This document shows positions 4,637-5,806 of a stretch of DNA of 15,489 nt, piece by piece. The stretch is from the UHGV virus genome UHGV-0097030; one strand, written 5' to 3'. The translations under genes and the position numbers were made by a program. This DNA is from a virus. The first letter of the stretch is position 1, and each line of letters opens with the position of its first letter. The notes beneath the pieces were generated by a model. The model ran no database searches, was not told the DNA's origin, and worked only from the letters and a program-made list of their open reading frames with translations.

Positions 4637-4825
4637 TTATTCGTCATGCATTTCAGGTAATTCTTCGTATTCGACTCCCCATACGAGTTTACACCAAGTG
4701 ACTCGCTCATATCTTTTACAAAAATCAGACCACATAACTTGTGTTCCATCATGGTTTGTTATTACTTCTGTAATATCACCAACACTAACAAAACTGGTAT
4801 TAGAAGCAGTTATTTTTACTTTCAT
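4637..4825 (-). CDS. Hypothetical protein
   Basis: 62-aa ORF. ATG overlaps the upstream stop (TAATG). Confidence 0.5.
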   Translation of the reverse strand: MKVKITASNTSFVSVGDITEVITNHDGTQVMWSDFCKRYERVTWCKLVWGVEYEELPEMHDE

Positions 4826-5112
4826 TACTTATCCCCAAGAGCTTTTCTGATTGCTGCGATACCTTTATTAACAGCTCCATACCATTCTGGATATGTTGTC
4901 GTTGTTCTATTTTTGGTTTGCTTAAGTAATAACTGAAGTGCTTCGAGAAGGTCAGGAGCTGCTGCTATCAGTAGCGCATCCTCCCTTTCATTTCTTGTTG
5001 CTGCTTCAATGTATGTGTCACCAATCGTCACACCATGGAACGTAGTCATCATCTCGTTGACGTTTCTAACCGTGTACTTCCATTTACCAGGCGTACCCTT
5101 AAACTCTTTCAT
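4825..5112 (-). CDS. Hypothetical protein
   Basis: Track ORF begins with GTG at 5118. The first ATG at 5112 has AGAGG about 5 nt upstream. Contains DALLIAAAPDLLEALQ. No assigned domain. Confidence 0.5.
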   Translation of the reverse strand: MKEFKGTPGKWKYTVRNVNEMMTTFHGVTIGDTYIEAATRNEREDALLIAAAPDLLEALQLLLKQTKNRTTTTYPEWYGAVNKGIAAIRKALGDK

Positions 5113-5130
5113 ATCCACCTCTGTTGTTTA

Positions 5131-5160
5131 TGCCAAAAATAAAGGCCGACTATTCGGCCT
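5131..5160 (-). terminator. Intrinsic terminator downstream of the membrane-protein gene
   Basis: Minus-strand hairpin AGGCCG-aatagt-CGGCCT followed by TTTATTTTTGG, immediately 3' of the CDS ending at 5165. Confidence 0.55.
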
Positions 5161-5164
5161 GAAA

Positions 5165-5614
5165 TTACTTAACCAATGATGCTGCATATTCGATAAGGTA
5201 AAGCTTTGGGGCCAGCCAAATTTTTAACCAAGTCATATTGGTTACTACACCAATAATAAAAATCCCCCACAGAGTCAAAACTACAACCAATGGCATGATA
5301 AGAAGATTAATATCACCTTTGCTATCCCAAACCATTGTCGGCCTGTATTTGTGATTTCCTTTCTCCCATGAATATCCTTCATCACCGATTTTACCTGTCT
5401 CAACTCTTTGGCACTGCTTCTTCATAAACCAGAAAACCAGTGGGATTGTTAGAATGGCCATTAATGTTTTAATCAGACTGTCAACCATATTCCATAGCAG
5501 CAACTGATGAACAACATCAGGAATCTGTGCCTGGCTAAATGAAACAGCCGCGTCTATTCCATTACTGGCTTTTTTCAGTAGTTCTACGAGAATCTTGTTT
5601 GCTTGTTCTTCCAT
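5165..5614 (-). CDS. Two-TM membrane protein at the sieB-equivalent position
   Basis: 149 aa. ATG at 5614 with GAGGTGA upstream. Two hydrophobic helices (LIKTLMAILTIPLVFWFM and INLLIMPLVVVLTLWGIFIIGVV). AT-rich. Followed by its own terminator. Confidence 0.6.
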   Translation of the reverse strand: MEEQANKILVELLKKASNGIDAAVSFSQAQIPDVVHQLLLWNMVDSLIKTLMAILTIPLVFWFMKKQCQRVETGKIGDEGYSWEKGNHKYRPTMVWDSKGDINLLIMPLVVVLTLWGIFIIGVVTNMTWLKIWLAPKLYLIEYAASLVK

Positions 5615-5668
5615 ATATCACCTCAAATAAGTGGTTTGCTGCGAAAGTAAATACGCTTAAGTTACCTG

Positions 5669-5806
5669 TTATTTATCCCACCAAGTTCCGTATCTATCTA
5701 TCCAGTTACACCAATCGTCGACACTCCATTTTGTTGTGTCGCATTTTGGCAATTGGCATGAATATCTACCTTCTTTGTAAAGTCGGCGTTTGACTTTCTT
5801 GAGCAT
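5669..5806 (-). CDS. Possible small Cys-rich protein (45 aa), not in ORF track
   Basis: ATG at 5806 with GAGGTGA upstream. Hand translation MLKKVKRRLYKEGRYSCQLPKCDTTKWSVDDWCNWIDRYGTWWDK. Sits between N and the membrane-protein gene. Confidence 0.3.
   Translation of the reverse strand: MLKKVKRRLYKEGRYSCQLPKCDTTKWSVDDWCNWIDRYGTWWDK

Follow-up and report, generated by a model that had tools for sequence, protein, structure and literature searches.

The closest known counterparts of the locus considered here are genes 34 and 36 of phage Sf6, which lie downstream of the antiterminator gene N. At the corresponding site, lambda and P22 have ral, sieB and ea10. The locus itself occupies positions 4637-5806 of a 15,489-nucleotide (nt) stretch of viral DNA (UHGV virus genome UHGV-0097030, hereafter the window), and the gene of main concern in it encodes a membrane protein of 149 amino acids (aa) with two transmembrane (TM) helices. 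The two Sf6 genes are direct homologs of the 149-aa gene and of a neighbouring 45-aa open reading frame (ORF), and occupy the same place behind N on the map; the window also shares with Sf6 the terminator behind gene 34 and the boundary sequence 'bsq4'. The Sf6 gene 34 product, however, has 140 aa, and identity to the 149-aa protein is only about 47-49% for the Sf6 gp34-type allele, which is seen in N7, CUS-3 and P22-like phages of Salmonella. The flanking genes are different as well: ral and gene 33 in Sf6, a pair of 95- and 62-aa ORFs in the window. Homologs in HF4s, HK633, mEp043, SfI, N7 and CUS-3 are labelled hypothetical or 'TM helix-containing'.

Within its prophage, which is lambda-like, the stretch 4637-5806 forms a mosaic, accessory section of the early-left (pL) operon, and as such it is ordinary for a lambdoid phage. 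The best overall explanation, held with moderate confidence, is that this part of the operon carries a portable membrane-protein cassette whose product is made in lytic growth. Its interest rests on the size of the 149-aa protein family, the lack of known relatives and the linkage of the gene to a terminator. An earlier note, made from the nucleotide sequence, had described four ORFs between N and cIII as an uncharacterised accessory cluster at the ral, sieB and ea10 site and had proposed an exclusion or abortive-infection function for the membrane protein. Its observations are largely right, whereas its interpretation is only partly supported. The coordinates of the four ORFs agree with the open reading frame list, the accessory site is the one named, and all four families are without known function, matching the genome paper on P22-like phages, in which most early-left genes have no known function (PMC8022706). 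The description of the ORFs as being without recognisable homologs was mistaken, as each matches a PHROG family with an expectation value (E) between 1e-22 and 1e-63. None of the matched families carries an assigned function. For the window, the outcome is mostly a correction: the cluster consists of catalogued but unstudied families and is not an orphan island.

The 149-aa protein family and its gene cassette

The 149-aa protein matches PHROG 3054 along its full length (E 1.1e-63, residues 1-149 against profile positions 1-137 of 137), a family that also holds Sf6 gene 34 and the HF4s 'TM helix-containing protein'. The ORF is intact and its product is 97% identical to common Escherichia coli proteins. 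Relatives occur in 175 phage records; a word-indexed search returned 512, all of them named 'hypothetical' and free of Pfam domains, and a profile search over clusters at 50% identity gave 2,539 representatives with an E of at most 1e-3, of which 1,155 stay at or below 1e-10. The relatives were found in the Enterobacterales, Pseudomonas, Vibrio, the Alteromonadales and several betaproteobacterial genera.

The two TM helices originally proposed were confirmed by hydrophobic segments at about residues 46-64 (TM1) and 104-125 (TM2), with Kyte-Doolittle values of 1.9 and 2.7, respectively, and exactly two such segments are present in 83 of 88 relatives. The N-terminal helix (residues 1-44) is amphipathic, with a hydrophobic moment of 0.38-0.52. 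Conservation across the family reaches 2.7 bits per residue in this helix, where it is periodic at 3.6 residues, and 3.4 bits at residues 127-149, compared with about 1 bit in TM1, the loop and TM2. Both conserved motifs, the N-terminal F.QAQIPDV..QLL.W and the C-terminal WLKIW.APKLYLIEYAA, are present, and the length of the loop between the TM helices varies from 10 to 76 residues among 88 members. The confident AlphaFold model, built with 88 diverse sequences (predicted local distance difference test score, pLDDT, 88; predicted template modelling score, pTM, 0.66), predicts a helix at residues 2-68 running into TM1, a poorly ordered loop, TM2 at 106-125 and a C-terminal helix at 128-148. As the chain crosses the membrane twice, its conserved N- and C-terminal parts must lie on one and the same face.

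The search for remote homologs that the earlier note had called for yielded no Pfam, PDB or fold relatives and no similarity to exclusion proteins. A structural-neighbour search with the AlphaFold model gave nothing informative, a Pfam scan of the 88 family members produced only scattered chance matches to unrelated membrane families, and a PDB sequence search with the family profile found designed coiled coils only, at E above 0.01. Profile and sequence comparison detected no similarity of the 149-aa protein to lambda SieB or RexB, to P22 SieA, SieB, gp17 or holin, to T4 Imm, or to P2 LysA. The values for SieB were a BLASTP E of 30 and an hhalign probability of 0.1-0.3%, and that for T4 Imm an hhalign probability of 0.3%; the holin Pfam models did not match the family either.

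The intrinsic terminator that had been noted directly after the membrane-protein gene was confirmed and is strong. On the minus strand it reads AGGCCGA-ATAG-TCGGCCT followed by TTATTTTT, and the hairpin folds with -14.3 kcal/mol (z = -3.4 against shuffles). On their downstream side the relatives share the terminator. Counted over loci, a hairpin of this kind stands directly 3' of the family gene in 60 of 77 cases among close relatives and in 44 of 78 among distant ones, as against 56 of 451 neighbouring genes, and the hairpins belong to at least six unrelated sequences. Upstream, the relatives share only about 30 nt including the ribosome-binding site (RBS), whichever of N, ral, sieB or DUF5484 precedes. 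A simple consensus search found no promoter site with 9 or more of 12 matches between pL and the 149-aa gene. The guanine-plus-cytosine (GC) content of the family gene is 34-42%, compared with 44.5% for the window. The 149-aa gene is thus a portable RBS-gene-terminator cassette without a recognisable promoter. The terminator linkage of the PHROG 3054 family is new: it is a regularity found here and no published criterion.

Genomic contexts were compared for 80 close relatives and 79 more distant viral loci, and adjacency to sieB was assessed over 156 non-redundant viral loci. In the close relatives, the family gene is flanked upstream by N, Ral, DUF5484 or sieB and downstream by Ea10, cIII, the 95-aa family or a protein of the Sf6 gene 33 type. 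The 149-aa gene lies 54 nt behind the preceding ORF in the window and only some 8-12 nt behind N in many relatives. About a third of the distant loci have the family gene downstream of N-type genes, and in at least 16 of the 79 it is found at the junction of lysis cassette and terminase. In one locus (L200, 3219-4984) the genes run holin, endolysin, homolog, Rz/Rz1, where a gap of 1 nt precedes the homolog and a start/stop overlap follows it; in Pantoea stewartii prophages (L096-L098, 3663-5453) the homolog directly follows the spanin genes and overlaps their end. The gene sieB is immediately upstream of the family gene in 9 of the 156 loci, and this juxtaposition indicates that the two are not alternatives for one function. 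In these nine loci (L034, L041, L050, L053, L056, L061, L072, L076 and L086) sieB is on the opposite strand and divergent from the family gene, the spacer being about 145 nt in most and about 455-475 nt in L072 and L086.

Expression and possible role of the membrane protein

Since no promoter-like site was found within 4637-5806, transcription of the cluster must come from pL through nutL and N (coordinates in Table 1). The hairpin behind the 149-aa gene is the first intrinsic terminator downstream of pL, which places N, the 45-aa ORF and the 149-aa gene on the transcript made before N acts. By analogy with the established lambda scheme, N, the 45-aa ORF and the membrane protein would be expressed from an antitermination-independent transcript; the 95- and 62-aa pair, cIII, kil and the recombination genes beyond the terminator would need antitermination by N, and the repressor would silence all of these genes in a lysogen. 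On this scheme the 149-aa protein would be made along with N upon infection or induction, and not from a repressed prophage. Virulent phages (phi92 gp220, N4-like Ithacavirus, Vibrio and Pseudomonas phages) likewise carry homologs among their early or middle genes, and the early ones fit a role in the lytic cycle.

The conservation pattern suggests that the 149-aa protein may be an inner-membrane-tethered adaptor whose functional surface would be the N-/C-terminal face, the hairpin and loop serving mainly as an anchor. As a speculative role, and the most probable one, the protein might guard or re-set the membrane during lytic growth. Among the versions of this role, a block of second infection following the logic of T4 Imm ranks first, though it is put forward only tentatively.

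Several points weigh against this reading. The conserved face would have to bind a conserved host or phage partner or to self-assemble, and such a partner is hypothetical. The cytoplasmic location that the earlier note had given to the amphipathic N-terminus was not borne out: in the family the N-terminal tail is acidic (2.5 lysine/arginine vs. 6.1 aspartate/glutamate) and the most basic part is the flank just past TM1 (2.6 lysine/arginine per 10 residues), so that the positive-inside rule gives no clear side of the membrane. In the lysis-cassette loci the family gene is a late one, hence early timing is not family-wide. In Vibrio phage 1220 g2 the homolog forms an opposite-strand island among tail genes, and in the minority of loci where the family gene runs opposite to its neighbours (1220 g2, L136 and L170) its own promoter is needed; the promoter scan, being a simple consensus search, misses weak and non-sigma-70 promoters. 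Linkage to a terminator is, in itself, moron-like. Finally, the N gene of the window has an altered start, and in this prophage that may weaken the steps of the scheme that depend on N. Its first codon (6145-6147, minus strand) is ATT where lambda, Sf6 and E. coli prophages have ATG; among the fetched loci, N starts with ATG in 18 and with ATT in one. Beyond this codon N is intact, arginine-rich motif included, and the first canonical in-frame start, TTG at 6075, would drop that motif. The ATT allele is also found in one IMG/VR contig with other flanks, 99.7% identical over 322 nt, and so looks like a real transmitted variant and not a sequencing error. It could denote a weak AUU start or an N-defective prophage.

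Among the alternatives, an early counter-defence against a membrane-based abortive-infection effector of a host or prophage, in the manner of T4 rII against Rex or of P22 gene 17 against exclusion by another prophage, is unlikely. In its favour, the anti-restriction gene ral (15 close loci) and a gene for Nmad5 nucleotide modification are among the neighbours in the slot, the 149-aa gene is on the earliest transcript in the window, both virulent and temperate phages carry the family, and P22 gene 17 belongs to the same interval; however, the protein has no similarity to gp17, the late-operon contexts are unsuited to immediate counter-defence, and no defence system is known as its target.

We consider equally unlikely the function proposed in the earlier note, in which the gene would be a moron expressed from the repressed prophage and its membrane-anchored product would exclude or abort other phages like SieB, RexB or HK97 gp15. 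Points in favour are that the site is a known hot spot for such genes, that the protein is small and membrane-bound and its gene AT-rich relative to the surroundings, that a tightly linked terminator makes up half of the classic moron architecture, and that some distant homologs form opposite-strand islands among structural genes. Against this function, the gene has the orientation of pL and comes shortly after N or ORF45; no promoter-like site was found, and all that accompanies the gene upstream is an RBS. Neither SieA, SieB, RexB nor Imm is similar to the protein, and PADLOC gave no match. The gene adjoins sieB in the nine loci mentioned and hence is no alternative to it, and it is present in virulent phages too, which have no lysogens to protect.

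An antiholin-like regulator of lysis timing or membrane integrity, as P2 LysA is by its lysis-cassette position, is improbable. Such a regulator would suit the divergent loci at the lysis cassette/terminase junction (at least 16 of 79), the tight packing of the homolog between endolysin and Rz/Rz1 in L200, its overlap with the spanin gene end in Pantoea stewartii, and the presence of two TM helices of which TM1 is weakly and TM2 strongly hydrophobic. Yet neither P2 LysA nor the P22 holin shows similarity to the protein, holin Pfam models do not match it, most occurrences, that in the window included, are in early operons far from lysis genes, and the space behind the spanins is itself a moron hot spot, making adjacency weak evidence. 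The idea that the four ORFs are chance frames or decaying remnants without function, suggested by their small size and the mutated N start codon, is effectively refuted by conservation, namely by full-length, high-scoring family matches for all four and, for the 149-aa protein, by the 2,539 clusters at 50% identity with invariant motifs and by an intact ORF nearly identical to common E. coli proteins.

A wider version of the preferred reading, the portable membrane-protein cassette of the pL operon made in lytic growth, is that PHROG 3054 represents a new and very widespread class of phage inner-membrane factors with one conserved mechanism acting through the N-/C-terminal face and encoded by a promoter-less gene-plus-terminator cassette. 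This generalization is rather doubtful. If it is true, the candidate mechanisms would be a general block to the entry of a second phage's DNA or a guard of membrane integrity against premature depolarisation, and temperate and virulent phages of Gamma- and Betaproteobacteria would plug the cassette into an immediate-early, a late lysis or a stand-alone place. Tractable carriers exist in Sf6, HK633, mEp043 and phages of the BASEL collection, which could bring the function of a very common membrane protein within reach.

The surrounding prophage and the smaller genes

The window is the regulatory core of a lambda-like prophage (Table 1). Compared with phage records and complete E. coli genomes, it is covered to 57% at best, which makes it a new mosaic of familiar modules. 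The hairpin 4541..4524 and the adjacent conserved junction (~4518-4630) match tL2A and the boundary sequence bsq4 of the Sf6 record. Scanned against Rfam, the interval 3800-7000 gave no family match at E up to 1.

Table 1. Position and strand of the main features in the early-left part of the window and its surroundings.
Feature	Position	Strand	Remarks
LexA-type cI repressor gene	6640-7341	minus	
pL-like promoter, TTGACT-17-TACTAT	6514..6486	minus	no other promoter-like site precedes the cluster on this strand; lies directly behind the cI-like gene
nutL boxB hairpin, GCCCTGAAGAAGGGC	6430..6416	minus	identical to lambda nutL boxB (sequence comparison and hairpin scan)
Lambda-type N antiterminator gene	6147-5815	minus	stop at 5815; profile and sequence comparison
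45-aa ORF, DUF5484 / PHROG 1871	5669-5806	minus	Sf6 gene 36 homolog; begins 8 nt past the N stop
149-aa two-TM inner-membrane protein, PHROG 3054	5165-5614	minus	Sf6 gene 34 family
Intrinsic terminator	5133..5160 (hairpin 5160..5143)	minus	7-bp GC-rich stem, 4-nt loop and T-run; 4 nt past the 149-aa stop
95-aa ORF, PHROG 1273	4825-5112 (97 aa from GTG at 5118)	minus	P22 orf78 homolog
62-aa ORF, PHROG 10407	4637-4825	minus	start overlaps the 95-aa ORF stop
Two further terminator-like hairpins	4541..4524 and 4503..4484	minus	just upstream of cIII
cIII gene	4451-4281	minus	downstream limit of the accessory stretch; PHROG 550, E 4.3e-22, match from residue 36 of the listed ORF
kil-like and recombination genes	past cIII	minus	
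cro, cII, replication genes, nin region, Q		rightward	

The 45-aa ORF scores 46.7 bits against Pfam DUF5484 (PF17583; gathering cut-off 27), matches PHROG 1871 at E 1.4e-22 and corresponds to Sf6 gene 36. Calling it Cys-rich was an overstatement, as it has three cysteines in 45 residues. The 95-aa ORF gives a full-length profile match to PHROG 1273 (E 3.2e-26). The GTG at 5118 sits within the Shine-Dalgarno sequence GAGGTGGAT, and the start is therefore more likely the ATG at 5112. Like this ORF, P22 orf78 occupies the interval between ral and cIII; the two are 36% identical over 66 residues (E 2e-5) and have the AAPxLLEAL motif in common, orf78 being the shorter with 78 aa. A 61%-identical relative of the 95-aa ORF bears the PGAP name 'XkdD/Y8K6 family phage-associated protein'. 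The full-length profile match of the 62-aa ORF is to PHROG 10407 (E 1.5e-45). Sharing one base at their junction and found together in other phages as well, the 95- and 62-aa genes are a two-gene unit.

Scans of the four ORFs with Pfam, NCBIfam and PADLOC returned DUF5484 only, and none of the defence models of PADLOC-DB 2.0 was matched at E up to 1. In the PDB search the 62- and 45-aa ORFs had no match. The 95-aa ORF gave one to RNA polymerase beta' (E about 0.05), which was put down to chance, its score being the sum of three very weak pieces; suspected kinship of this ORF with the N-terminus of the Ea22-like protein of the window received no support from comparison. The literature was searched by accession, family name and topic, and a functional study came to light for none of the four families.

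In an E. coli AW1.7 prophage that has the same 95/62-aa pair and N (L005, 2651-3274), the 149-aa slot is filled by a putative nucleotide modification protein of the Nmad5 family, showing that the slot exchanges cargo freely. Elsewhere in the window, a 214-aa ORF at 8059-8703 (plus strand), between cII and the replication initiator gene, has a counterpart of equal length and place in a 'hypothetical protein' of Bas106 and looks like another accessory slot. A 200-aa ORF of the nin region (12123-12725, plus strand) has the HNH-like motif NHKNG...N...W...H..N and is probably a homing endonuclease. Within the 291-aa replication initiator ORF, the peptide VSKLET is repeated three times in tandem (FVSKLETKNVSKLETLNVSKLET; 9060-9190, plus strand), probably the footprint of origin iterons inside an O-like gene.

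Comparison with known systems

SieB of lambda and P22 resembles the 149-aa protein in being a small membrane protein encoded in the N-cIII interval. However, sieB is on the strand opposite to pL in both phages and is annotated with its own promoter in P22, whereas the 149-aa gene runs in the direction of pL and lacks a promoter-like site of its own. Morons of the kind described by Hendrix and Juhala (HK97 gp15, lambda bor) have in common with it a portable single gene plus terminator, a GC content lower than that of the surroundings, and insertion at several hot spots. They also bring a promoter, but none travels with the 149-aa gene, and independent expression from the prophage is accordingly not indicated here.

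P2 LysA, which is non-essential and affects the timing of lysis, is a membrane protein of comparable size (141 aa), and some members of the PHROG 3054 family are found in its slot between endolysin and spanins. Its translation is hydrophobic along most of its length, in contrast to the two-TM layout, and the gene in the window belongs to an early operon.

T4 Imm, with two TM helices, is an early product of lytic infection. Like the 149-aa protein it is a small inner-membrane protein, and its record describes a membrane change that keeps the DNA of superinfecting phages out. Imm differs in having 83 aa and in being without the conserved N- and C-terminal helices; it is, moreover, confined to the T-even phages, whereas the PHROG 3054 family spans many phage types. 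For a possible mode of action of the 149-aa protein, T4 Imm provides the nearest parallel.

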